64,000 nt of DNA, taken from positions 1-64,000 of the IMG/VR virus record IMGVR_UViG_3300046012_000505; one strand, 5' to 3'. Source of the stretch: a virus. The translations under genes and the position numbers were made by a program. This document shows, one piece after another, positions 3,001 through 51,420 of the stretch. The notes beneath the pieces were generated by a model. It did not search any database. It saw only the letters and a program-made list of their open reading frames with translations, and was not told where the DNA came from. Within the stretch, counting starts at the first letter, position 1, and each line of letters begins with the position of its first letter.

Positions 3001-4642
3001 GCGCGGCGCTGGCCGCCGCGTCGACGGGGGGCGCCTCCGCGATGGTCCGCATGACGTCGGCAGCGGTGTAGTCGGCCGGCGTGCCGTCGTCGAACCGGAC
3101 GCGGACGTATTGGCCCTGGTCGCCCCAATATTGTTCCACCGTCGCGCCGCGTGGCGGCTGGCCGGGAAAGCTCAGCCCGATCCGCGTATCCGGCGCAGGA
3201 GGCGGAGGAGAACCGGGCGGCACACCGCCACCACTGGGCGCCGCTGGCTGCCAATCGTCCGGACCGGCAGCAGCGCCAGGCGTTGCCTCGTCTTCTCGCT
3301 TGCCGCGGATGCGCTCGATGCCCTTGTGAGCGCCGACAAACCCCGCACCCATGCCGGCGTTCATCGCGTAGCCTTGGGCGATCTCCTCGGGTGTCGCTGG
3401 CTTGCCCTCGGCCAGCCCCGCGGCAACCTGCTGACCGGCACCGATCGCCGGCTGCACGCCGAATATCTGCGCCAGCGCCTCGGAGACCGGTCGCTTGAGC
3501 GCTTCGACCGCGGCGCCCGTGGCGTCCTGGCCTACGGTCTTGCCGAACAGCGAAACGCCCGGCGCCAGTCCCATAGCGGTGCCAAAGGCACCGGCGATGC
3601 CGGTGTCGACCAGCGCCCGGTTCACGGCGTCGTCGTGGCTCAGGTGCTCGGACCGCGCTCGCTGATACGCCGGGGCGATCTCCTGGATCATTGATCCGAG
3701 GCCAAAACCGGCGGCGCTGCCGACCAGGGCACCAGGCGCGCCGGCGACTGCTGTGCCTGCGGCACCGCCGGCGATACCGGTTGCCAGCGACGGCGCCGAA
3801 TGACCAAGACCGTGACCGAACTGCGCTGCCCACCAGTTCGGGCTCGTCCATCCCTCGCTGATCGGAGTTTGCAGCAGCTTCCCGACATAGGAGGTATCGG
3901 GCGTTTCCTCCGGCCGGTCGGCGAACGGGGTCGCCGCCTGCGCCGCTTCCTTGCCGCCCTCTACGATACCGCGCAGGCCCGCGCGCGCGGCGGTGCCGAG
4001 GAATCCCGGATGCGGCGCTTCGTCTGCCGCGCGCGCCACCGGCGCGTGCGCGGGCGTAGCAGCCGGCGCTACCGGGGCCCAATCGTCATCAGGCGCAGCA
4101 ACGGGCTCTGGACGGCCAGCAGCAGCCACGGGACGAGGCGCCGCCGCAGGGATGACCGGCGCCCAGTCATCGGCATCGCTGGCCTCACCGCCCACTGCGC
4201 GCGGCTGACGATTCTGCGCGCGGTCATCAAAGAGGACCTTACCGTCCGGCGTGACAAGATGGTCACTGTCGTTCCAGCGCGGCGCCTTCTCAGGATCGGC
4301 CCACTGACTCTCGTTCGAAAACGTAGCGTGGTACGGCGTCTTCCAATAGTCCGGGTAGTGCAGCCGGTCATCGTTCGGGTCGATCGCCGATTTCGCCTTC
4401 GGATCACCGGCCTGCAGCGCGCTCCAGAAACCACGCATATCGTAGTCAGCGTGCGGGCTCGGGTCGAAAGGGACACTATGCTCGCGCACCCAACTCTGAA
4501 ACTTCGCCTCATCCTCCGGAGGTAACGCGGTCTGATAGCTATCGGCGCGCTTCGCCCACGCCATGTTCCGGTCAAACGGCCGCACCAACGCACCGGCATC
4601 GACCGGCGCGTTGAGCCCAGAGTCGTCCACCCCGTCAGCCAT
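1..4642 (-). CDS. Giant DarB-like polyvalent virion/ejection protein, 3' end outside window: N-terminal domain, Ala/Pro linkers, InPase-like domain (~1270-1660), N6-adenine methyltransferase domain (<900)
   Basis: ATG at 4642 overlaps the upstream TGA; same frame as the MTase at the window edge and open in the stretches checked. Motifs AKYVGWGG, LEPGMGVGHF, VIGNPPF, RLPSSAFKKNAGTEVTTDILF; InPase-like DYGEIRRTRGADGEGVDAFIG...FDEHKVMLG. Confidence 0.85.
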   Translation of the reverse strand, partial: MADGVDDSGLNAPVDAGALVRPFDRNMAWAKRADSYQTALPPEDEAKFQSWVREHSVPFDPSPHADYDMRGFWSALQAGDPKAKSAIDPNDDRLHYPDYWKTPYHATFSNESQWADPEKAPRWNDSDHLVTPDGKVLFDDRAQNRQPRAVGGEASDADDWAPVIPAAAPRPVAAAGRPEPVAAPDDDWAPVAPAATPAHAPVARAADEAPHPGFLGTAARAGLRGIVEGGKEAAQAATPFADRPEETPDTSYVGKLLQTPISEGWTSPNWWAAQFGHGLGHSAPSLATGIAGGAAGTAVAGAPGALVGSAAGFGLGSMIQEIAPAYQRARSEHLSHDDAVNRALVDTGIAGAFGTAMGLAPGVSLFGKTVGQDATGAAVEALKRPVSEALAQIFGVQPAIGAGQQVAAGLAEGKPATPEEIAQGYAMNAGMGAGFVGAHKGIERIRGKREDEATPGAAAGPDDWQPAAPSGGGVPPGSPPPPAPDTRIGLSFPGQPPRGATVEQYWGDQGQYVRVRFDDGTPADYTAADVMRTIAEAPPVDAAASAAPMRGQPMSEAESFDLMAEGERNARQPARRPSTPVLGEDAIRAIEQADALERRAMTDPNRTAEQRADDYAAAQELRRKFGHPADEVTVGDPDAQARTVAAREAARLGDLGQAAPAGSPASGVPTWVTQAAAERATPLPGRGDLLAGVPRAAAEPAPKRPTDLIEFLLANGGLRDDTGEFRAMDADKWHLEKPFRRRLVNPDGMSNDEAREKAQEAGFLPPDDPNAPPNSDLDHLFERVRDNLAGRHVFSDRDETAARAWSEARQEQQPFNDQIRERAHELGIDAPEGWGPEDIIAAVHEREAMQAEGEGIQSAWERNNDEYDHVLAAMHPELFDVQHQEGISADRTGNAGDQPAEVANRPGGGAPAGPDAGPAAPVVGARPVGQGERETGDPGDRGSGAEPAAVTDRPPAAGKRSDPVKVETPADMESVRRHVEPEPSKAKIAAGNAAGGYADFQGLPIKIETAKGGVREDKATPPAWRVEDFPADYGEIRRTRGADGEGVDAFIGPNPKSDRVFVIDQVHADTGRFDEHKVMLGYDTPEQALADYHGAFSDGRAADRIGGLHAVSMDQFKDWLKEGSTKKPFALAAREEPTAGEEAGHGLQDAVPAGDEAARPAVVHEPAADGAARPAPAAEIGAGPRDAGRVDSGPAQGGERPAEEPGGAPGGGGAGVRDADRVPDTVSGAEPGTAGRPAPDSQVAGKNFTIEPGAVEEGRSPRTKALDNLAAIELTKRIIAEDRPATREEQAALAKYVGWGGLSGAFEGSDGKFSKGFETVGARLKELLTPEEYAAAKRSTQYAHYTADHVIRSMWHAVEGMGFKGGLVFEPGMGVGHFLGMMPPDLAGRSQYQGIEYDHTTANIAKLLYPESGVRHADFTATPIPDNTFDLVIGNPPFSDTVIKSDPKYSARNFMLHDYFFAKSLDSVRPGGLLGFVTSAGTMNKIDPSARDYLADRADFVGGVRLPSSAFKKNAGTEVTTDILFFKKRAEGAEPGSLEWTGVVKRT
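877..1209 (-). CDS. Overprinted TnpV-like small protein inside the DarB-like gene (alternate frame)
   Basis: AGGAGG 6 nt before ATG; MDFKTPYLLAMRQQDPQLFMSLRRTGLLDQHLQQKSEQA...RAAEEQVFATLIEFP resembles TnpV; host frame is low-complexity linker here. Confidence 0.65.
   Translation of the reverse strand: MDFKTPYLLAMRQQDPQLFMSLRRTGLLDQHLQQKSEQAHEMLGELTADLPKAANGLPKNLAALRAAEEQVFATLIEFPTPSAEQNPEPPDDLPRTAKSLAKTSPSSRGR
1792..1980 (-). CDS. Overprinted small basic helical protein inside the DarB-like gene
   Basis: AGGAGG 6 nt before GTG; amphipathic 62 aa; host frame open and low complexity. Confidence 0.5.
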   Translation of the reverse strand: MPTAQEMLAISRRKLQIVQEAARRPGLTPDQRRRLLALVRSAKANVKLAIRAIAVAGRNRPQ

Positions 4643-11486: not shown

Positions 11487-11542
11487 TCAATAACTCCACG
11501 GGCCGTGAATATACACAACCCGCCAGCGGATGCCAATACCGC

Positions 11543-27493: not shown

Positions 27494-28110
27494 CGAGCGC
27501 CCTTCCGGACCGCCGGGATATCCTCGCCGGTCGGCTTCTTGCCGTAGGCGCGAATCTTCTCCAAGCGCCCCTCGCCGCTGCCGGCGCCGTCGTCGATGAT
27601 CGACTCGACCTTGCCGCCATCCTTGCGGCCGACGCGCCCGCCGGCCTTGTGCGGCATCCCCATCGGGGCGCCGGCGCCGACCGGCGGACCCATCGGCGGC
27701 CGCGGCGGCATGACGGGCGGACCGCCAGGCGGCGGACCGGGCGGCAGAACGACCGGCGGGTGCGGCGGCGGCATCATGGCGGGGCCGGCACCGGCCCCGG
27801 GAGCGCCACCGCCCTGCGGTGCGATGATAACGTTGACCTTCGTGTGGCCGCCGCCCTTGGTGCGGCCGCCCTTCTTGCGGCCGGGGCGATCGAGTCGCAT
27901 CTTCGCCGGTCCGCCTTCCGCGCGACCGCCGGTCTTCAATTTCAGTTTGGTCTTCGGCTCGCCGGCATGATCGTGCGACTCGTGCTGCGAGATCGCGCGC
28001 TCGACCATGCGCTTGTCCTGAGCCTCGTCGTTCGCACGGCCCCCTGACATGCGGTGCAGCTTCTCGCTGTGATGCTTGCTCGACTGGCGGCGAAGGGCTG
28101 CGTGCGACAT
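27490..28110 (-). CDS. Basic Pro/Gly-rich virion-associated protein
   Basis: Several KxGG motifs, TKVNVII, GAGSGEGRLEK. Confidence 0.7.
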   Translation of the reverse strand: MSHAALRRQSSKHHSEKLHRMSGGRANDEAQDKRMVERAISQHESHDHAGEPKTKLKLKTGGRAEGGPAKMRLDRPGRKKGGRTKGGGHTKVNVIIAPQGGGAPGAGAGPAMMPPPHPPVVLPPGPPPGGPPVMPPRPPMGPPVGAGAPMGMPHKAGGRVGRKDGGKVESIIDDGAGSGEGRLEKIRAYGKKPTGEDIPAVRKGAR

Positions 28111-28292
28111 GCGGGCGCTCCGGTGCGATAGCCGCGCGGCAACGCCGCAGCGGTGGTGCTATCGCGTTCCCGATCCCGGAGCGCCCGGCCTCGATCACGC
28201 TAAACCGCCCAACCGCCAACCGGAGCACCCGGAGGTTTGGCTGGACAACGCCAGAACTACACGATGCGTGGAGAAAGCGCAAGCGGCCTGGC

Positions 28293-28913
28293 TTAGCTCT
28301 CGAGCGGCACGTTCCAGTAAAGCCAACTGCCAAAGTCCTCGCGGACGTCGGTCGGTAGGAACTCCAGCCCGGCGCGCAGCAGTTCCGCCGCCGTCGGCTG
28401 ACGCGGCTCCTTGAGCGGCCGCAGCCGACCATGCGCCGCGATTACGCCGCGCCGGCCACTGTGGTTGGCGTCCTTGTCGCCCTTCACGCCGTTGCAGTCC
28501 AGGCAAGCCGTCAGGATGTTCGTCCAGACGGTCTTGCCGCCCTTCGAACGCGGGACGAGGTGATCGAACGTGAGCTCGTTCGAGGGAAACGGCCCACCGC
28601 AATACTGACACCGGAATCGGTCTCGCAGCAAAATCGAGCGCCGGCAGAATTTCGGGGCGCCCGACACCGGCGCATACTGGCGAAGCGCTACGACCTTCGG
28701 GACAGCGACCGTGCACGACGGCGAATGGAAGAACGCATCTTCCCACGTCTCGACGACAGTCACGCGATCGCGATACTGCGCATGCACGGCCGCCTGCGCC
28801 GAGATCAGCGACAACGGCCACGTCGACAGCGGCTGGAAATCGGCGTTGAGCACGAGCGTGCGAAGCCCGGCGGCCGGCAGCGGTCTTCGTTGGGCCTCGC
28901 GAGCGGTTTGCAT
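28293..28913 (-). CDS. HNH endonuclease (McrA-like) at the end of the tRNA array
   Basis: TLVLNADFQPL...RRSILLRDRFRCQYCG...TFDHLVPRSKGG...ACLDCN..KG. Confidence 0.9.
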   Translation of the reverse strand: MQTAREAQRRPLPAAGLRTLVLNADFQPLSTWPLSLISAQAAVHAQYRDRVTVVETWEDAFFHSPSCTVAVPKVVALRQYAPVSGAPKFCRRSILLRDRFRCQYCGGPFPSNELTFDHLVPRSKGGKTVWTNILTACLDCNGVKGDKDANHSGRRGVIAAHGRLRPLKEPRQPTAAELLRAGLEFLPTDVREDFGSWLYWNVPLES

Positions 28914-28929
28914 GGTCGTCTCCGATGGA

Positions 28930-29004
28930 TGGTGCCGGATGAAGGAATCGAACCCTCGCCGCCTGCGTACGAAACAGGAGCGCTACCACTACGCTCAATC
29001 CGGC
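28930..29004 (-). tRNA. tRNA-Thr(CGT)
   Basis: Cloverleaf, CCA encoded. Confidence 0.85.
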
Positions 29005-29009
29005 TATGC

Positions 29010-29084
29010 TGGTAGGGCCACGGAGAATCGAACTCGCGATCTACCGGTTAAAAGCCGGCAGCTCTGCCATTGAGCTATGGCCCC
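29010..29084 (-). tRNA. tRNA-Lys(TTT)
   Basis: Cloverleaf, CCA. Confidence 0.9.
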
Positions 29085-29090
29085 ATAGTT

Positions 29091-29167
29091 TGGTGCGCGG
29101 CCCGAGACTCGAACTCGGAACATCCGGGATTTGAAGCCGGCGCCTCTGCCTATTGGGCCAGCCGCGC
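29091..29167 (-). tRNA. tRNA-Leu(CAA), short variable loop
   Basis: Cloverleaf, A73, CCA. Confidence 0.8.
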
Positions 29168-29170
29168 GAT

Positions 29171-29246
29171 TGGTGGTCCCGCCGGGAGTCGAACCCGGAA
29201 TCTCCCGCTTCGGAGGCGGGCGCTCTGTCCATTGAGCCACGAGACC
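29171..29246 (-). tRNA. tRNA-Arg(CCG)
   Basis: Cloverleaf, CCA. Confidence 0.9.
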
Positions 29247-29250
29247 ATGT

Positions 29251-29322
29251 TGGCGACCCCGGCTGGATTCGAACCAGCAAAGGCGCGTTTAGAAGACGCG
29301 CGCGCATCCAATGCGCGGGGCC
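29251..29322 (-). tRNA. tRNA-Arg(TCT), reduced D-arm
   Basis: T-arm, anticodon arm and CCA clear. Confidence 0.75.
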
Positions 29323-29329
29323 ATGAAAT

Positions 29330-29407
29330 TGGCGCTCCCGGAGGGACTCGAACCCCCATTTTTCCAGATTCGTAATCTGGTGCCATCTCCAGTTAGGCGA
29401 CGGAAGC
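29330..29407 (-). tRNA. tRNA-Arg(ACG)
   Basis: Cloverleaf, CCA. Confidence 0.85.
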
Positions 29408-29408
29408 A

Positions 29409-29482
29409 TGGAGCCGCGGACGGGATTTGAACCCGCGTTGCGCTGATTGAAAATCAACTGTCCTACCTTAGACGACCGCGGC
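29409..29482 (-). tRNA. tRNA-Glu(TTC)
   Basis: Cloverleaf, CCA. Confidence 0.85.
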
Positions 29483-29486
29483 AAAA

Positions 29487-29561
29487 TGGTGGGCAACCGG
29501 CGAATCGAACGCCGCACATCTTGGATGTCGACCAAGCGCTCTGCCAATGAGCTAGTCGCCC
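29487..29561 (-). tRNA. tRNA-Val(GAC), C33
   Basis: Cloverleaf, CCA. Confidence 0.85.
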
Positions 29562-29566
29562 GTAAC

Positions 29567-29642
29567 TGGTGCTCCGTGAGGGACTCGAACCCCCGAATGC
29601 CTCGGTGTAAACGAGGTGACTTTGCCGCTTGTCGAACGGAGC
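29567..29642 (-). tRNA. tRNA-Val(TAC)
   Basis: Cloverleaf, CCA. Confidence 0.85.
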
Positions 29643-29744
29643 AAATTGAGTGCGGGGCGAGGGCGTGGCTGGCCATGTCACAGCCCTTTGGACTCGCGAT
29701 CTCGCCCCGCAGCGGACGACGCTCCTATCGCGCTCTCCGCAAGA

Positions 29745-29819
29745 TGGTCGGAGTGAGAGGAATCGAACCCCCATAGTCCTGCTCCCAAAGCAGGCGATCA
29801 GCCATTGACCCACACTCCG
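29745..29819 (-). tRNA. tRNA-Pro(TGG)
   Basis: Cloverleaf, C1-G72, CCA. Confidence 0.9.
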
Positions 29820-29823
29820 ATGA

Positions 29824-29899
29824 TGGTGCCCCCGACAGGATTCGAACCTGCGGCCTCCGAGTTAGGATCTCGGCGCACGTCCAATCGTGCTACGAGGGC
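29824..29899 (-). tRNA. tRNA-Arg(CCT)
   Basis: Cloverleaf, CCA. Confidence 0.9.
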
Positions 29900-29902
29900 A
29901 AT

Positions 29903-29980
29903 TGGTCAGCGTGGCAGGATTTGAACCTGCGGTCTCCTGCGTCCGAGGCAGGCACTTTTGCCAGGCTAAGCTACACGCTG
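29903..29980 (-). tRNA. tRNA-Pro(CGG)
   Basis: Cloverleaf, C1-G72, CCA. Confidence 0.9.
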
Positions 29981-29986
29981 AAAATC

Positions 29987-30063
29987 TGGCGCCCACGACG
30001 AGGATCGAACTCGCCGCAAACCGGATCGACAATCCGGCCCCGTCACCAGCTGGGTCCGTGGGC
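29987..30063 (-). tRNA. tRNA-Asp(GTC)
   Basis: Cloverleaf, G73, CCA. Confidence 0.85.
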
Positions 30064-30127
30064 ATGAAAGGTTCGCCGCGCTGCTGCTCATCAGGACCTA
30101 TGCAGCACGGCTACGCCGGCCGGCGAT

Positions 30128-30200
30128 TGGTGGCCCAGGTGGGGTTCTTACCCACATTGTCCTGCTTAAGAGGCAGGCCCGATTGTCCGGTCACTGAGCC
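30128..30200 (-). tRNA. tRNA-Lys(CTT), atypical T-loop TAAGAAC
   Basis: Acceptor, anticodon and T stems pair; CCA. Confidence 0.75.
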
Positions 30201-30207
30201 GTCGTGT

Positions 30208-30282
30208 TGGTAGTCGCGCGTGGAATCGAACCACGATCTCGCCCTTATCAAGAGCGTCCTCTGCCATTGAGATTACGCGACC
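30208..30282 (-). tRNA. tRNA-Ile(GAT)
   Basis: Cloverleaf, CCA. Confidence 0.85.
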
Positions 30283-30286
30283 AAAC

Positions 30287-30369
30287 TGGTGAGCCGGTGA
30301 GAAGTCGAATCTCTCCCCGAAGGAATGGATTTACAGTCCACCTGCCAGAACCGCTGGCTTTCCCGACCC
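30287..30369 (-). tRNA. tRNA-Tyr(GTA)
   Basis: Cloverleaf with variable arm, CCA. Confidence 0.85.
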
Positions 30370-30375
30370 GTGATA

Positions 30376-30449
30376 TGGAGCCCCAGCGCGGTACTGACCC
30401 GCGATACCCGCCTTACCAAAGCGGTGCACTGCCATTGTGCTACAGGGGC
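30376..30449 (-). tRNA. tRNA-Thr(GGT), atypical T-loop GTCAGTA
   Basis: Stems pair; CCA. Confidence 0.75.
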
Positions 30450-30452
30450 GAT

Positions 30453-30540
30453 TGGCGGAGCGGCGGGAATTCGAATCCCACACCGTGAGGTGCGCAGAGC
30501 TTAGCAGGCTCGCTCGGCGCCCTGACCGATTGCGCGCTCC
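30453..30540 (-). tRNA. tRNA-Ser(GCT)
   Basis: Cloverleaf with variable arm, G73, CCA. Confidence 0.85.
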
Positions 30541-30647
30541 ATACGTTTCCTCGAATACAGCCTCCTGCTGCGCACGATGCGCGGCCGGAAGATTCGCTCA
30601 CCGAGCGCCTTCGCCGCGGCGCTCCGGGATTTCTTCGGCTTGCGCAT
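30501..30647 (-). CDS. ArfA-like (alternative ribosome rescue factor A-like) peptide reading into tRNA-Ser(GCT)
   Basis: AAGGAG SD; MRKPKKSRSAAAKALGERIFRPRIVRSRRLYSRKR resembles the ArfA core (..L.DPLFRQRV..K....SY.RK); stop codon is in the tRNA anticodon loop. Confidence 0.6.
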   Translation of the reverse strand: MRKPKKSRSAAAKALGERIFRPRIVRSRRLYSRKRMERAIGQGAERAC

Positions 30648-30661
30648 GGCGCGCTCCTTGT

Positions 30662-30750
30662 TGGCGGAAGGCGGAGGAATCGAACCCCGATCGCTCATCA
30701 CGAACCCCTGGTTTTCAGGACCAGTTGCCAGCCATTTAGCGGCACCTTCC
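30662..30750 (-). tRNA. tRNA-Ser(TGA), C33
   Basis: Cloverleaf with variable arm, G73, CCA. Confidence 0.85.
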
Positions 30751-30755
30751 ATAAT

Positions 30756-30833
30756 TGGTACTCGCGGTCGGATTCGAACCGACACTGTCTTCCTTCTGAG
30801 GGAAGCGACTCCTTCCAGTTGGTCTACGCGAGC
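30756..30833 (-). tRNA. tRNA-Leu(CAG), short variable loop
   Basis: Cloverleaf, CCA. Confidence 0.85.
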
Positions 30834-30834
30834 A

Positions 30835-30911
30835 TGGTGCATGCGGAGAGATTCGAACTCTCACTTGACGGCTTCTCGAACCGCTTCCTCTGCCAGTTGG
30901 GATACGCATGC
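30835..30911 (-). tRNA. tRNA-Leu(GAG), short variable loop, C33
   Basis: Cloverleaf, CCA. Confidence 0.8.
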
Positions 30912-30913
30912 GT

Positions 30914-30988
30914 TGGTGCGGGCGTAGGGAGTCGAACCCTAAGAGCCTGGGGTTTAAGCCCGGCTGCGTCGCCGTGCGCCACGCCCGC
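30914..30988 (-). tRNA. tRNA-Leu(TAA), short variable loop
   Basis: Cloverleaf, CCA. Confidence 0.8.
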
Positions 30989-30993
30989 GTTGT

Positions 30994-31069
30994 TGGCGTC
31001 CCGTGGGGGAATCGAACCCACCGTTCCCGACTTGAGAGGCCGGTTTCCGAACCACTAGAAGAACGGGAC
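30994..31069 (-). tRNA. tRNA-Glu(CTC)
   Basis: Cloverleaf, CCA. Confidence 0.9.
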
Positions 31070-31073
31070 ATGA

Positions 31074-31144
31074 TGGAAGCCGGTGACGGTAGCGCGCCGC
31101 CCTCGGGAGCTTCAAAGGCTCCCTCACTCCTTGAGCAACCGGCC
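31074..31144 (-). tRNA. tRNA-Gln(TTG), degenerate T-loop and short D-arm
   Basis: Acceptor and anticodon stems pair; CCA. Confidence 0.65.
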
Positions 31145-31149
31145 AGAGA

Positions 31150-31224
31150 TGGAAGCGATCGGGGGAGTCGAACCCACCATCAGCGCGTTCAGAGCGCGCC
31201 GTCCTACCGTTGAACGAGATCGCC
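31150..31224 (-). tRNA. tRNA-Gln(CTG)
   Basis: Cloverleaf, CCA. Confidence 0.85.
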
Positions 31225-31225
31225 A

Positions 31226-31300
31226 TGGAGCCCGCGGCGCAGAATCGAACTCGCGTCGGCCAGGTACAGGCTGGCTGCTCTGCCACTGAGCTACACGGGC
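31226..31300 (-). tRNA. tRNA-Thr(TGT), C33
   Basis: Cloverleaf, CCA. Confidence 0.8.
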
Positions 31301-31303
31301 AAT

Positions 31304-31377
31304 TGGGGTGAAGCCGGGGATCGAACCCTGCTCTCCGCGTTCACAGCGCGGTGTCCTGCCACTGAACGAGCCTCACC
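31304..31377 (-). tRNA. tRNA-His(GTG) with G-1:C73
   Basis: Cloverleaf, CCCA end. Confidence 0.9.
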
Positions 31378-31384
31378 ATCGACT

Positions 31385-31456
31385 TGGAGTCGCAGTCGGG
31401 AATTGAACCCGACCGCGCGGTTTTGCAGACCGCGCCGTCCGCCTGGACACCGCGAC
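31385..31456 (-). tRNA. tRNA-Cys(GCA)
   Basis: Cloverleaf, U73, CCA. Confidence 0.85.
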
Positions 31457-31459
31457 AGT

Positions 31460-31530
31460 TGGCACCAGCGGAAGGAATCGAACCCTCGTCCAGGCGTTTG
31501 GAGTGCCTGTTGGCGCCACGCCACGCTGGT
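31460..31530 (-). tRNA. tRNA-Trp(CCA)
   Basis: Cloverleaf, G73, CCA. Confidence 0.85.
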
Positions 31531-31533
31531 AAT

Positions 31534-31610
31534 TGGCTCCTCACCCAGGACTCGAACCTGGAACGACGAGATTAACAGTCTCGCTCCCGTGCCGACCGGG
31601 ACCGTGAGGA
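31534..31610 (-). tRNA. tRNA-Asn(GTT)
   Basis: Cloverleaf, TCC start, G73, CCA. Confidence 0.9.
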
Positions 31611-31618
31611 ATAAAACT

Positions 31619-31694
31619 TGGAGCGGACGGCCGGAATCGAACCGTGCTTAGGGCGGTTTGGAAGACCGCTGGGCAGCCAATGCCCCACATCCGC
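31619..31694 (-). tRNA. tRNA-Gly(TCC)
   Basis: GCG start, U73, CCA. Confidence 0.85.
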
Positions 31695-31697
31695 AAT

Positions 31698-31773
31698 TGG
31701 TGCCGCCCCTCGGGATCGAACCGAGATATCCGGTTCTTCAAACCGGCGCCTTGACCACGTCGGCCAGAGCGGC
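31698..31773 (-). tRNA. tRNA-Phe(GAA)
   Basis: Cloverleaf, CCA. Confidence 0.9.
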
Positions 31774-31885
31774 AAATGGGAAACAGGAGGTCTGACTGGT
31801 GAGGCCAGTATTCTCCTGCCCGGCATCGCGACAGACAGGGGACCACCCTGCCCGCCCTAGCCCCATCGTGCGCCAATCGGCGCGT

Positions 31886-31957
31886 TGGTTGCAGCGGTCG
31901 GAGTCGAACCGACGCGACTGAGTTTATGAGACTCAGCGGGAACCGTTCCTCACTGCA
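31886..31957 (-). tRNA. tRNA-Met(CAT), U1-A72
   Basis: Cloverleaf with short D-arm, CCA. Confidence 0.8.
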
Positions 31958-31958
31958 A

Positions 31959-32053
31959 TGGTAGTCGTCGTAGGTTTCGAACCTACCCGTTCCAGGCCGT
32001 CCGCCCGGTCTCGCGCGCTTATAAGGCGCACCCGCTCACCAGAGCCGACGACC
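31959..32053 (-). tRNA. tRNA-Ile(TAT) with long variable arm
   Basis: 7-bp acceptor, TTCGAAA T-loop, loop CT-TAT-AA, ~25-nt variable region. Confidence 0.8.
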
Positions 32054-32058
32054 AAATA

Positions 32059-32132
32059 TGGAGCGTCCGCCGGTAATCGAAACCGGTCCTTCTCGTTGGC
32101 AACGAGAGGCTCGACCCTCGAGCTACGGACGC
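32059..32132 (-). tRNA. tRNA-Gly(GCC)
   Basis: GCG start, U73, CCA. Confidence 0.9.
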
Positions 32133-32136
32133 GAAT

Positions 32137-32211
32137 TGGTGGACCTATGGGTAGTCGAAACCCAAGACAGTGATCTTGCAAAGATCGCCCGCTGTTCCGC
32201 AGCTTAGGCCC
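32137..32211 (-). tRNA. tRNA-Ala(TGC)
   Basis: G3:U70 present, CCA. Confidence 0.85.
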
Positions 32212-32323
32212 ATAGCGGCACGCATGGCTGCGCGCCGCGAAATTCTGCCGACGCTTGAAACCAGCCTGCCCCGCCGGTCCGCATCTCTGCGGGTTTGATC
32301 GGAGCCGAACTACAAGCCGCCGT

Positions 32324-32360
32324 AACAAACAAAAAACCCTCTCCGGGTGAGGGAGAGGGC
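32324..32360 (-). terminator. Intrinsic terminator (attenuator) between promoter and tRNA array
   Basis: GCCCTCTCC-CTCACCC-GGAGAGGGT followed by TTTTTGTTTGTT. Confidence 0.85.
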
Positions 32361-32389
32361 TTGGTCTTCGTGACCTGTGGTGCTGCGGT

Positions 32390-32527
32390 TTACGCGCTCC
32401 ACCCCTCTCCGGTCGTACCCATCCCGTGATTTCTCGCGGGTTGATAGGCGCACGCAATGGCGAACCGCCGGACCGATCGCGTCGGTTCCGGAAGTATCTG
32501 CCAGGCGGTTGTGCGTAACGATTTCAT
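32390..32527 (-). CDS. Leaderless 45-aa attenuator leader peptide MKSLRTTAWQILPEPTRSVRRFAIACAYQPARNHGMGTTGEGWSA
   Basis: ATG 7 nt after the -10 box; 3' end carries CCGGAGAGGG, identical to the terminator 3' arm. Confidence 0.7.
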   Translation of the reverse strand: MKSLRTTAWQILPEPTRSVRRFAIACAYQPARNHGMGTTGEGWSA

Positions 32528-32534
32528 GTGGGGG

Positions 32535-32563
32535 AAGATGCTCGCGAGTTGCGGCGGTGTCAA
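32535..32563 (-). promoter_or_regulatory. Sigma70-like promoter of the tRNA operon
   Basis: TTGACA-N17-CATCTT. Confidence 0.75.
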
Positions 32564-32845
32564 CAGGAATTCACGGAGCGTTCATTTTTTCAGATCACGC
32601 GCGATCAGAGATTCCGCGGAGCCGGTCACGGCGATGCAAAAACTCCGCTTCACTCTTTGGCAGTCCGCAATCGCAATTTGAATCGACGCAGATATTGCCG
32701 GCCCCGCCAAAAACTACAGGATGGTCGACATTCCACTCAGCCCAAACGGCCGCAGACACGGCGTCGATGCCGGCCTCACGATGATGGTCCGTCCAACTTC
32801 TGACTCTTGACGCCCTATCCATTGTCTACCAACTCCGTTCTGTAA

Positions 32846-35485
32846 TCAAATCACCCGCGGATGACCACTCGGCGGTTTCGCGAGACCACCTTTGTCGCGA
32901 GCGGCCTTCGCGGCTGCTTCGCGCTCGGCCTCGGCAGCGGCCATCTCGTCGGCGTGGTGACGGTCCTCCTGAGCGATGACGTCGCGGTGGTGCTCGTCCG
33001 CCTGCCGGTGCTCGGCGACGCCGCGCAGGTGCTCGCGGATTACGCCGCCAGTCTTGGCGCCCATCTCGGCGGCGTGCCGATCGGCATCGGCGGAAAGCTC
33101 GTTCCTCTGCTGGATATGATCCGACACGAGGCCAGCCGCGTGACGCGCCTGCTCAGCGGCCAAGCTGTCGCTGTGCTGCTGCAAGTCTGACGCGATGCCG
33201 GCGTGCGTCTTCGCCAGGTCGGCATTCGCCTTGATCTGTTCCGTCTCCTCGCGCATGCCGGCGACACGCTCGCGCGACTCGCGATCGGCGGCGCGATCGG
33301 CGGACTCGACGGCCACCTCGCGGGCACGCGCGTCTTGCGCGGCCTTCGCCTCGATCGCGTCCTGCGCACTCTGCGCCGCGTTGGCCTGCTGCTTATTCGC
33401 CTCGGTCGAGGCTTTCAACTGCAGCGCCGCCATCTTCGCCGGGTCCGGCGGCGGCGCACCAGGCGCCGGTGCGCCGGGCGGAGGCGGTGGCGCGAACAGC
33501 TTCTGGTAATTGCCGATCCCGATCATCTTCAAGATCATGCTATCGACCGCCTTGCCGTCGTACAGCCCGGGGTTCATCGCCTGCAGCTGCTTGATGGCGA
33601 CCGCCTTCATGATCCGCTGCATGTGGCTCGAGGTGTTCGGGTCGGCGGCCGGCACGATGTCGCACTTTTCGAGCGCGGCGATGAACTGCGCCTGTTTCCA
33701 CGGCTTCGCGCATTTCGGATTGTGGCGCCAGAACGCTTCCGGGTCTTCGCGGAACCTCTCTTTGAGCAGCTGGAATTCCTCGCTCTGCGCGGCGTGCAGG
33801 CGGACGTGCACCGCTGACAGCATCTTGCCGGCCTGCTCAATGAGCGCCAGAGTCGTGCCGACCGGCGCGTCCTGGCGCCCCTCGCCGACCTGGAGCTCGG
33901 CCGTGCCGCCGACGCGCTGGCCGGTGGTCTCGACGTCCTTGACCAGCATCGCGAGCCCTTGGCCCACGTCCTTGTAGGGCAACGGCATCACGACGTTCTG
34001 AATGGGCTGCGAGCCGGTCTGGATTTTCGCGCCCATGCCGGGCCCGACGCGGAACACGTTGGTCTGCTGGCGACCAACCGAGTCGGCGTACAGGAAGCCG
34101 GGAAAAGACGCGAACATGCCGGTGTCGAGCATCATGCGCCACGCCGCGGTCAGCGCCTTGTCGGCATTGCCGAGCAGGTGCAGCAGGCCGATGTCGTAGA
34201 AGCCCATGGCGGGGATGAACGGGAATTTGACGAACACCCGCTTGGGCAGGCAGTTGATGTCGTCCTTCTTCCAGTTGCGGCGTATCTCGAGGATTTGCCG
34301 GCTGTCCTTGTCAAGCGTCACCCGGTAGGGAAGCTCCAGCCCGGTCGGCTTGCCGTCGCTGTCGACGTGCTCGAGCCCCTTGATGTTCAGTTCCGTGTAG
34401 CACTCGTAGATCGTGAACTGCGCGTCTTCCGGCCGCTGCATCCGATCATTGAAGCCCTGCACCATCGCGATGGTCGTATCGACGGCGTTCGGCTGGTAGG
34501 TCGGCTGGCCGGCGGTGAGGCTCCCGAGGTTGCGGTAGACGCCGGCGATCTGCATGCGGACCAGCGTCGAGCGGCGCATGAGAATACGGTGCGTGACGCG
34601 TCCGGAATCCTCGAAGTCGTTCGCGGCGTTCGACACGATGAGGTCCGACGCATCGACCGAGCGCGAGATCGGCATCCGGCGGATCGGGCAGTTGTAGACC
34701 TTCTTGAACCCGGCGCCGCCGAAGCCGACCCAAAACAGCATCCGGTCCGTGTCGGGCCGATAGCCCTTATCTGTCGCGGTCAGGTAGTGGTTGAAGTCTT
34801 TCTCTAGCGCTTCGGCGAGATCGTCGCCGTCCTCATCGGTCTGCGCGTTTGGATCGGCGGAGGCGGCCGCGGGGTCCGGACCGTCCGTCAGTTCCGGGCC
34901 GCCGTTGTGGCCGATGCCAGGCGGAGCGCCCGGCGGCGGCGCAGGCTTGATCGGCGAGTCGTCGCGGACCTTGACTGGTCCGCCGGCTGGCAGCAGCTCG
35001 GCGCTGGCATTCGACTGGAACCGGATCACGGCCTCGGTGAGCAGCGGGTGACGGACCGTCGACATGCCCTCGACCGGCGCCGATGCCGTGCCGGTGTCGC
35101 CGCGCGGCTCCTCGAGCTTGAAGCCCAGCAACTCGATGCCGGCCGCGCGGGTTTGCAGCCATTCGTCGCGCGACTGGTCGTCCTGCTGGATCGCGTCGCT
35201 CAATTGCGAGGCGATGCGCCCGAGCTCGCCGGGATCGATGAAGTCGGCGAGGTTGGCGTCGTGGTCTTCGGGGTTGATTTTCTTCGCCGCCGGCGACTGC
35301 GGGCTGAGGTCGATCTTTACCGAGCCATCCTCGACCTCGATTTTGAGCGCGCCGGAAGCCGGGTCCGCCGTTCCCTCGGCGGTTTCCTCGCCGGGCAGGA
35401 TGATAACCGTCGACTCGCCGGGCTCATCGTTCGCGGCGGCCGGCTCCGGCGCCGGCATGAACCCTCTGGCGAGATTGGCGACCAT
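32846..35485 (-). CDS. Portal protein with long helical C-terminal barrel
   Basis: DDQSRDEW, HPLLTEAVIRFQS.A.AELLPAGGPVK, GFKKVY, PAMGFYDIGL, APVGTTLAL. Confidence 0.9.
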   Translation of the reverse strand: MVANLARGFMPAPEPAAANDEPGESTVIILPGEETAEGTADPASGALKIEVEDGSVKIDLSPQSPAAKKINPEDHDANLADFIDPGELGRIASQLSDAIQQDDQSRDEWLQTRAAGIELLGFKLEEPRGDTGTASAPVEGMSTVRHPLLTEAVIRFQSNASAELLPAGGPVKVRDDSPIKPAPPPGAPPGIGHNGGPELTDGPDPAAASADPNAQTDEDGDDLAEALEKDFNHYLTATDKGYRPDTDRMLFWVGFGGAGFKKVYNCPIRRMPISRSVDASDLIVSNAANDFEDSGRVTHRILMRRSTLVRMQIAGVYRNLGSLTAGQPTYQPNAVDTTIAMVQGFNDRMQRPEDAQFTIYECYTELNIKGLEHVDSDGKPTGLELPYRVTLDKDSRQILEIRRNWKKDDINCLPKRVFVKFPFIPAMGFYDIGLLHLLGNADKALTAAWRMMLDTGMFASFPGFLYADSVGRQQTNVFRVGPGMGAKIQTGSQPIQNVVMPLPYKDVGQGLAMLVKDVETTGQRVGGTAELQVGEGRQDAPVGTTLALIEQAGKMLSAVHVRLHAAQSEEFQLLKERFREDPEAFWRHNPKCAKPWKQAQFIAALEKCDIVPAADPNTSSHMQRIMKAVAIKQLQAMNPGLYDGKAVDSMILKMIGIGNYQKLFAPPPPPGAPAPGAPPPDPAKMAALQLKASTEANKQQANAAQSAQDAIEAKAAQDARAREVAVESADRAADRESRERVAGMREETEQIKANADLAKTHAGIASDLQQHSDSLAAEQARHAAGLVSDHIQQRNELSADADRHAAEMGAKTGGVIREHLRGVAEHRQADEHHRDVIAQEDRHHADEMAAAEAEREAAAKAARDKGGLAKPPSGHPRVI

Positions 35486-51278: not shown

Positions 51279-51420
51279 CTCACAAAATGTGGATTGGTGG
51301 TAGCCCGAAATAGCGGGGAACACGGCTTGATTGTGGCTATCTACGCTGATCGCTGACTGAGATATTCACATTTTGTGAACTTTAGCGGTTGACAATGCGT
51401 GGAGTCGGTAGCAGAAATGA
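51279..51420. promoter_or_regulatory. Divergent control region with three palindromic operators and a rightward TTGACA
   Basis: CTCACA-AAA-TGTGGA, TTCACA-TTT-TGTGAA, TTGACA-ATG-CGTGGA. Confidence 0.65.

Follow-up and report, generated by a model that had tools for sequence, protein, structure and literature searches.

The purpose and timing of phage tRNA genes have been debated for decades, with codon compensation and, of late, the replacement of tRNAs lost to host defences among the explanations, and almost nothing is known about how phage tRNA arrays are regulated. What decides when such an array is transcribed? The question is raised by the window analyzed here, a stretch of 64,000 nucleotides that makes up the first 64 kb of a viral contig of 101 kb from a soil phage (IMG/VR record IMGVR_UViG_3300046012_000505, ~66% G+C). 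On its minus strand, genes for a large terminase, an HNH protein and a portal protein (35485-32846) are followed by a gap of 634 nt, a tRNA array and a second HNH gene. The gap contains a leader made of a promoter, a short open reading frame (ORF) and an intrinsic terminator, which, on the evidence presented below, probably acts as a ribosome-dependent transcription attenuator controlling the array as part of a mobile cassette. The phage would then probably make its own tRNA set mainly when translation is slow.

Leader elements upstream of the tRNA array

The features of the leader and of the array are listed in Table 1. A preliminary description of this DNA had reported a promoter, a 7-nt gap, an ATG, a 45-codon ORF, a terminator and a complete tRNA set, all of which were confirmed in position by direct reading and folding, the array supplying tRNAs for all 20 amino acids. 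By direct reading of the minus strand, the ATG (32527-32525) sits 7 nt past the -10 hexamer and is not preceded by a Shine-Dalgarno sequence, a signal that is present in 34 of the 50 long genes of this phage under a lenient criterion. A promoter in such a placement, with a -35 hexamer matching at least five of six positions, was found before 0.28% of the ATGs in these phages. The geometry of the promoter would place the transcription start at, or within a few bases of, ATG 32527, and the leader ORF is predicted to be leaderless or nearly so.

The arms of the terminator lie at 32362-32352 (5' arm) and 32344-32334 (3' arm), and its fold has an energy of -18.1 kcal/mol. A second copy of the in-ORF word CCGGAGAGGG was located at 32346-32337, in the terminator 3' arm; the first two bases of this copy are loop bases, so that the pairing core is GGAGAGGG. 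In minimum-free-energy folds of transcripts ending before the 3' arm, the in-ORF GGAGAGGG pairs with CCCUCUCC, and the resulting duplex (-17.1 kcal/mol) is stronger than the mean of dinucleotide shuffles (-11.4 kcal/mol, p = 0.011), in agreement with the earlier proposal that the in-ORF word, identical to the 3' arm, can pair with the 5' arm as an antiterminator. Folding with and without the ribosome-covered segment yielded the two expected states: the antiterminator formed in the truncated transcripts, and, with a ribosome set at the stop codon, the RNA beyond it folded into the terminator. GTGG...CCAC and GCG..CGC pairs had been described as extending the antiterminator; a hairpin built from them is indeed present around the stop codon, and it lies inside the antiterminator helix. 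Folding of the whole leader is stronger than that of its shuffles (z = -3.4), and the long hairpin within the ORF could possibly serve as a pause structure.

These elements suggest the following sequence of events. Host RNA polymerase would initiate at or within a few bases of ATG 32527, and a ribosome would translate the 45-codon leader, despite its missing Shine-Dalgarno sequence, while the polymerase proceeds. As soon as the terminator 5' arm emerges, the GGAGAGGG in the last codons would pair with it, as seen in the folds, and form the antiterminator. A fast ribosome arriving at the stop codon, 10 nt downstream, would cover GGAGAGGG, so that the terminator forms and the 36 tRNA genes remain largely untranscribed; were the ribosome slowed or blocked earlier, the antiterminator would persist and the polymerase would enter the array. 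The ribosome could be slowed by depletion or cleavage of the tRNA pool, by a lack of amino acids, by inhibition of ribosomes or by heavy late-gene demand. Decoding would recover with the new tRNAs, which would complete a feedback loop on decoding capacity.

Table 1. Features of the leader and tRNA array of the window, and corresponding features of related cassettes.
Feature	Location	Strand	Details
Operator-like palindrome	32570-32584	-	TGAACG-CTC-CGTGAA, 6 nt upstream of -35
Sigma-70-type promoter	32563-32535	-	TTGACA 32563-32558, N17, CATCTT 32540-32535 (direct reading)
Leader ORF, 45 codons	32527-32390	-	No Shine-Dalgarno sequence; TAA stop 32392-32390
Long imperfect hairpin within ORF	32514-32450	-	Core CCGGAACCGA/TCGGTCCGG; in minimum-free-energy folds
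Antiterminator partner (region 2), CCGGAGAGGG	32412-32403	-	Codons 39-42; ends 10 nt before stop
Two small hairpins inside antiterminator helix	32401-32363	-	First (32401-32376) contains stop codon; folding
Intrinsic terminator	32362-32324	-	11-bp stem AAGCCCTCTCC / GGAGAGGGTTT, 7-nt loop, T6 then GTTTGTT
Spacer, terminator to tRNA-Ala	32323-32212	-	Partly conserved among L283, L284 and L287
tRNA array	32211-28930	-	36 tRNAs, 36 different anticodons, all 20 amino acids
HNH endonuclease gene closing the cassette	28913-28293	-	Translation read
Promoter and start, window			TTGACA-17-CATCTT-7-ATG; ORF 45 codons
Promoter and start, L287			TTGTCA-17-TATATC-6-ATG; ORF 32 codons
Promoter and start, G001			TTGACA-17-CATCAT-10-ATG; ORF 32 codons
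Promoter and start, L283			TGGACG-17-TATCGT-10-ATG; ORF 31 codons
Promoter and start, L284			TTGTGA-17-CAGAAG-7-ATG; ORF 53 codons
Spacer motif GGCAGGTT(N)GGTGGAAGCCCC, L283	4131-4152		
Spacer motif GGCAGGTT(N)GGTGGAAGCCCC, L284	3610-3632		
Spacer motif GGCAGGTT(N)GGTGGAAGCCCC, L287	~4190-4215		

Related cassettes and their surroundings

Related cassettes were reached through the HNH gene that follows the array. Each of its IMG/VR homologues with 65-68% identity comes immediately behind a syntenic array (Ala-Gly-Ile(UAU)/Met-Phe-Gly-Asn-Cys ... Leu(CAA)-Lys-Thr(CGU)-HNH), and four of these relatives include the array start: L287, L283, L284 and G001, the last being a complete 120-kb genome with terminal repeats. 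The leaders of the four gave no blastn match to the window leader, and the five leader peptides are unrelated.

The layout of promoter, ORF and terminator expected upstream of other phage tRNA arrays was recovered in all four relatives. The N17 promoter spacer, the missing Shine-Dalgarno sequence and an ATG 6-10 nt after the -10 hexamer are common to the five cassettes (Table 1). Three of the five have a -35 hexamer matching at least five of six positions, against the background of 0.28% per ATG (P of at least three in five, ~2e-7), and all five match at least four of six, against a background of 1.8%. Every cassette has an ATG-initiated ORF of 31-53 codons that stops between -14 and +11 nt from the antiterminator partner; the background for an ATG-initiated ORF of at least 30 codons stopping that near a given point is 9.3% per locus. 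At four of the five loci, 5-11 nt separate the end of the partner from the stop codon that follows, and in G001 the partner begins just past the stop codon, with its 3' end 14 nt beyond the first stop base, a geometry in which a terminating ribosome would cover the partner in all five cassettes. The terminator precedes tRNA-Ala by 88-310 nt in every cassette, and no sigma-70-like promoter was found between the two in four of the five.

Compared with shuffles, the antiterminator duplex gave p values of 0.011 in the window, 0.002 in L287, 0.003 in L283, 0.14 in L284 and 0.31 in G001 (Fisher combined p = 2e-5 for the five cassettes and 1.8e-4 without the window), the complementarity thus exceeding shuffles, among the relatives, in L287 and L283 only. 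In full-length minimum-free-energy folds the partner word is unpaired in the window and is kept in the antiterminator, which survives, in L287, L283 and L284; between L287 and L283, a G-C pair inside the antiterminator helix is swapped to C-G. Such turnover of sequence with retention of architecture seems typical of leader-peptide attenuators, and untypical of ligand-binding RNAs or functional small proteins.

The genes upstream of the cassette differ from one phage to another. A portal gene occupies this place in the window and a gene for a DarB-like protein of 1238 residues in L287; the upstream genes of G001, including a PurZ-like gene, are divergent, and the upstream gene of L284 has a terminator of its own. 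As the upstream genes of G001 cannot supply transcripts, the leader promoter is the evident promoter of that cassette, and the divergent genes in G001 together with the terminator in L284 indicate that the leader promoter belongs to the cassette itself. None of about 160 portal relatives from IMG/VR and JGI metagenomes (at most 57% identity) has a tRNA array next to its portal gene, so that these loci were uninformative about the leader; closer portal homologues are present in the protein database (P0005, 87%, partial; P0002, 67%). The differing upstream genes and the arrayless portal relatives indicate that the leader travels with the array. The PurZ-like gene of G001 (L296, 1085-2203, minus strand) matches phrog_1211, an adenylosuccinate-synthetase-like enzyme of the PurZ type (E = 9e-56), which hints at a 2-aminoadenine (Z) genome in this phage.

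In another soil metagenome, unrelated flanks enclose a copy that is 97% identical and spans precisely 32563-32209, beginning at the leading base of the -35 hexamer and running to the first tRNA. Its differences from the window include G32360 to A, by which a G-U pair of the terminator becomes A-U, a G-C to G-U change in a hairpin that is also synonymous, and one A inserted in the loop of the second small hairpin, with the fold intact. Among the natural variants, only two substitutions fall in the ORF, one synonymous and one Cys26Phe, which are too few for a selection test. A minor related phage in the source sample lacks 32583-32845 (263 bp holding a 75-codon ORF) and has 11 other bases instead; the 33 nt that contain the palindrome and TTGACA are retained, and divergence begins after them, the 30 visible bases reading N17, AATGGT, 7 nt and ATG, a repetition of the promoter/ATG geometry that is suggestive only. 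The loose ends of the variant contigs had no match elsewhere in the phage genome.

The recurrence of the cassette bears on whether the constellation arose by chance, that is, as an ordinary terminator after the portal operon, lying near a promoter-like word, a random frame and a repeated GC-rich arm word. A 45-codon frame is common at this composition, codon diversity is random-like, the arm words are common, and the pattern was first picked out of 64 kb searched. Nevertheless, the full architecture was replicated in four independently retrieved cassettes, and another metagenome has the module at 97% identity with unrelated sequence on both sides, which leaves coincidence a disfavoured and very improbable explanation.

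Further searches added no cassettes: neither the INPHARED phages (blastn with 31900-33000) nor viral contigs scanned with the arm-word pattern gave a match, an HNH alignment scan yielded nothing new, and a scan with a motif of the spacer returned only two known loci. The tRNAs of the arrays are too diverged for pattern design, and none of the sequencing runs containing this DNA is listed as RNA.

The tRNA count of the window was obtained with relaxed-threshold ARAGORN and Rfam. The first tRNA (Ala, UGC) has a non-canonical D-arm in L283 (~4210-4283) and L296 (3752-3824), and default ARAGORN misses both. In three arrays the tRNA-Ile(UAU) is 95 nt long (window 31959-32053, L283 4363-4457, L287 4428-4522), unusually long for Ile, and may carry an insertion or intron. 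The arrays contain only one Met-type CAU tRNA, ATA being served by Ile-UAU. At the other end of the cassette, the HNH gene has distant relatives (31-38% identity; L288-L292) in jumbo-phage contigs of 108-536 kb, near dispersed tRNA genes and with a phage-encoded transfer-messenger RNA immediately upstream. An inverted match of 24 nt (22/24) joins the spacer (32258-32232) to the HNH gene (28634-28660), where the conserved GAPKFCRR motif is encoded. The idea that its two halves form a stem for processing on either side of the array was discarded for lack of conservation in the four relatives, and a long-range duplex energy test gave no discrimination.

Competing explanations and counter-evidence

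Could the terminator unit be a gene in its own right? The leader might encode a stable RNA of ~200 nt or a 45-residue peptide acting in trans, the array being driven by an unrecognised signal. The promoter and the strong terminator do bracket a highly structured RNA of ~200 nt, and the tRNA cluster of T4 likewise carries small stable RNAs. Two reports on Sinorhizobium describe terminated attenuator RNAs and peptides that can act in trans (PMC6614838, PMC7968998). No sigma-70-like promoter was detected under a relaxed criterion in the spacer between the terminator and tRNA-Ala, where the preliminary description had named an independent promoter as evidence against attenuation; phage-specific promoters would evade such a scan. 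Just after the terminator of L283, L284 and L287, the spacer has a motif, GGCAGGTT(N)GGTGGAAGCCCC, that is better conserved than the leader ORF. It was recognised as neither a sigma-70 nor a sigma-54 promoter and may represent a signal for processing or an unfamiliar type of promoter. Against an independent small gene, cassettes that share 65-68% identity in their HNH proteins show no conservation of either the peptide or the RNA, the unit always lies directly before tRNA-Ala regardless of the upstream genes, and a plain small RNA would gain nothing from an alternative pairing with the terminator arm. This explanation was judged rather improbable.

Somewhat less improbable, but still unlikely, is that the switch is real and needs no ribosome to read it. 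Its antiterminator could be stabilised or disrupted by a factor of phage or host origin (a protein antiterminator, a repressor or an RNA), or the terminator could merely leak at a low constitutive level, the ORF being incidental in either case. The repressor would be the one binding the palindrome family TYCACR-N3-YGTGRA, which has nine perfect sites in the phage against none expected (15-mers at 11495, 24443, 40274, 44383, 47665 and 51365 of the window, and at 70516, 71240 and 71273 of the genome). At 51365 and 71240 the site also stands 6-9 nt before a TTGACA, and at 51365/51389 and 71240/71273 copies of the palindrome flank or overlap TTGACA -35 boxes; these palindromes are probably the operators of a phage repressor or Cro. 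The palindrome at 32570-32584, 6 nt before the leader -35, fits the family at 10 of 12 positions, and sites of that quality do not outnumber those predicted by chance (19 against 28 expected). Its membership of the family is uncertain, and it might add a repressor layer to the control of the array.

The terminator and the antiterminator are as real under this explanation as under attenuation, and the operator-like palindrome, the non-coding-like codon usage of an ORF with no Shine-Dalgarno sequence, the strong structure of the leader and the better conservation of the spacer after the terminator all agree with it. What it leaves unexplained is the ATG placed 6-10 nt after the -10 hexamer in the five cassettes, and an ORF of at least 30 codons that always ends within 15 nt of the partner. 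Moreover, an RNA that binds a factor should retain sequence or shape, whereas the leaders are unalignable and belong to no Rfam family (a permissive Rfam scan of 28000-33500 returned tRNA-type matches only). The palindrome itself is at chance level, and none was seen by eye upstream of the -35 hexamers of the relatives, where no formal search was made.

Ribosome-dependent attenuation, which the computations support well, remains the favoured explanation, and several observations weigh against it, the first group concerning the codons of the leader. The ORF is built from 33 distinct codons, which specify every amino acid except Asp (19 in all), and includes TTA, ATA, AGA, CGA, ACA, AAA and CAA, which are rare in the long genes of the phage (0.2-7.7 per 1000). 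These counts agree with the preliminary description, which had read the leader as a 'pan-codon' sensor. However, 33 distinct codons are ordinary for random ORFs of local composition (mean 31; P ~0.26-0.30), as are the counts in all the relatives, and 19 amino acids are only mildly unusual compared with random sequence (P ~0.04-0.05). The G+C content at third codon positions is 0.69, as opposed to 0.76-0.87 in long ORFs with a coding-type GC pattern, so that codon usage alone is no proof of coding, and the rare codons are what non-coding sequence would hold. The leader codons reach 30 of the 36 tRNA species of the array, a marginal result (P = 0.053), and in the relatives the matching of codons to array tRNAs was not above random (Fisher p = 0.19). 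Hence, while the core architecture of the attenuator stands, recurring in four syntenic relatives, its 'pan-codon' property is not accepted as shown.

The amino-acid diversity of the peptides gave a different result. It was high in the four relatives (19/32, 16/31, 19/53 and 18/32 residues; Fisher p = 0.0015 against composition-matched random ORFs), whose leaders also ranked high when compared with length-matched real ORFs (P = 0.010, 0.082, 0.088 and 0.031). No runs of codons for one amino acid were present in the five leader peptides, each with 16-19 different amino acids, and no stalling motif was evident in the leader peptide. The high diversity is consistent with a sensor lacking specificity for any single amino acid, a plausible idea and the weakest part of the reading.

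The second group of adverse points concerns the promoter and the folds. CATCTT is a weak -10 hexamer. The distance from the -10 hexamer to the ATG reaches 10 nt in G001 and L283, giving a leader of ~3 nt, and transcripts from a further TTGACA promoter in L283 would leave out its ATG. In L284 and G001 the antiterminator pairing does not exceed that of shuffles. In the window, the terminator fold at full length is ~10 kcal/mol more stable than the forced antiterminator, so that read-through would hinge on folding order, a kinetic choice that likewise governs the trp attenuator. No region 1 that would sequester the antiterminator partner was found by folding; an untranslated leader is consequently predicted to read through, unlike that of trp. 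The arm words CCCTCTCC and GGAGAGGG are also common as words of terminators or of repetitive extragenic palindromic (REP)-type elements in Alphaproteobacteria and Planctomycetota, and a nearby repeat can arise otherwise. Finally, the sample comprises only five cassettes, the transcription start, ribosome occupancy and read-through are predictions from sequence, and translation of the leader presupposes a host able to translate leaderless mRNA.

With regard to the arm words, more than 120 matches in bacterial genome contigs were considered and set aside, all being REP-like nested palindromes with no leader homology. These palindromes (loci L163-L282) consist of CCCTCTCCC-loop-GGGAGAGGG, GGGGTGAGGG...CCCTCACCC and a second CCCTCTCCC hairpin with a T-run; they are widespread among Alphaproteobacteria, Planctomycetota and other groups, where a single genome frequently has numerous copies, and share the words CCCTCTCC and CTCACCC with the phage terminator.

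Comparison with known systems and significance

The attenuators of amino-acid operons (trpL, hisL, leuL, pheL and the multivalent thrL and ilvGMEDA) resemble the phage leader in their promoter-proximal mini-ORF, in a terminator placed before the regulated genes, in an antiterminator that competes for the terminator 5' arm and whose partner is masked by a ribosome at the stop codon, and in a rapid turnover of sequence with retention of the architecture. In contrast, the output of the phage leader is tRNA genes and not biosynthetic enzymes; the leader has no regulatory codon run, its peptides containing 16-19 different amino acids, no Shine-Dalgarno sequence, with a start at or within a few nucleotides of the predicted 5' end, and no region 1, and its ORF is longer (31-53 codons). 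The read-through predicted for an untranslated phage leader is the opposite of trp superattenuation.

The attenuators of bmrB-bmrCD, vmlR and lmo0919 respond to translation inhibitors. So does the ribosome-mediated attenuator in the mef(E)/mel leader (PMC4335068). In systems of this type, as proposed for the phage, a stalled leader ribosome blocks the terminator and the signal is translation speed, and the logic of the phage leader appears closer to them than to trp. They differ in that they belong to Firmicutes, control resistance pumps or ribosome-protection proteins, and rely on leaders with Shine-Dalgarno sequences and on specific stalling peptides. T-box riboswitches have a conserved specifier loop and T-box sequence; the permissive Rfam scan gave no T-box match, and the leaders of the relatives could not be aligned with that of the window.

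The nearest published regulated accessory tRNA array is the trn operon of Anabaena sp. PCC 7120, with 26 tRNA genes on a megaplasmid, which is repressed by TrcR and induced by translational stress (PMC10272220). Both are large accessory arrays, mostly silent and turned on when translation is impaired, as is proposed for the phage; the Anabaena operon is controlled by a protein repressor of initiation, whereas the evidence in the phage points to a cis-acting switch of mini-ORF and terminator. A full-text literature search retrieved no paper in which a phage tRNA array is preceded by a leader peptide or controlled by attenuation or antitermination.

Phage tRNAs are known to replace tRNAs destroyed by host defences (PMC10264068, PMC11555353). 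A wider interpretation, which we hold only tentatively, is that these mobile phage cassettes, each with a leader, a near-complete tRNA array and an HNH endonuclease, form a family in which a leaderless, amino-acid-diverse mini-gene would serve as a general gauge of decoding: shortage or cleavage of host tRNAs would stall the ribosome and open the replacement set, and the new tRNAs would shut it, making the cassette a self-regulating module of translation rescue and counter-defence, and the first known attenuator of tRNA genes. The question of when such arrays are used would become testable with a leader-reporter fusion under defined tRNA depletion, and the cassette could serve as a portable sensor of translation stress. 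If true, leader-peptide attenuation would be extended to tRNA genes as output and to leaderless mRNAs as input, and the use of the phage arrays would follow a simple logic, in which tRNAs are made only when decoding fails.

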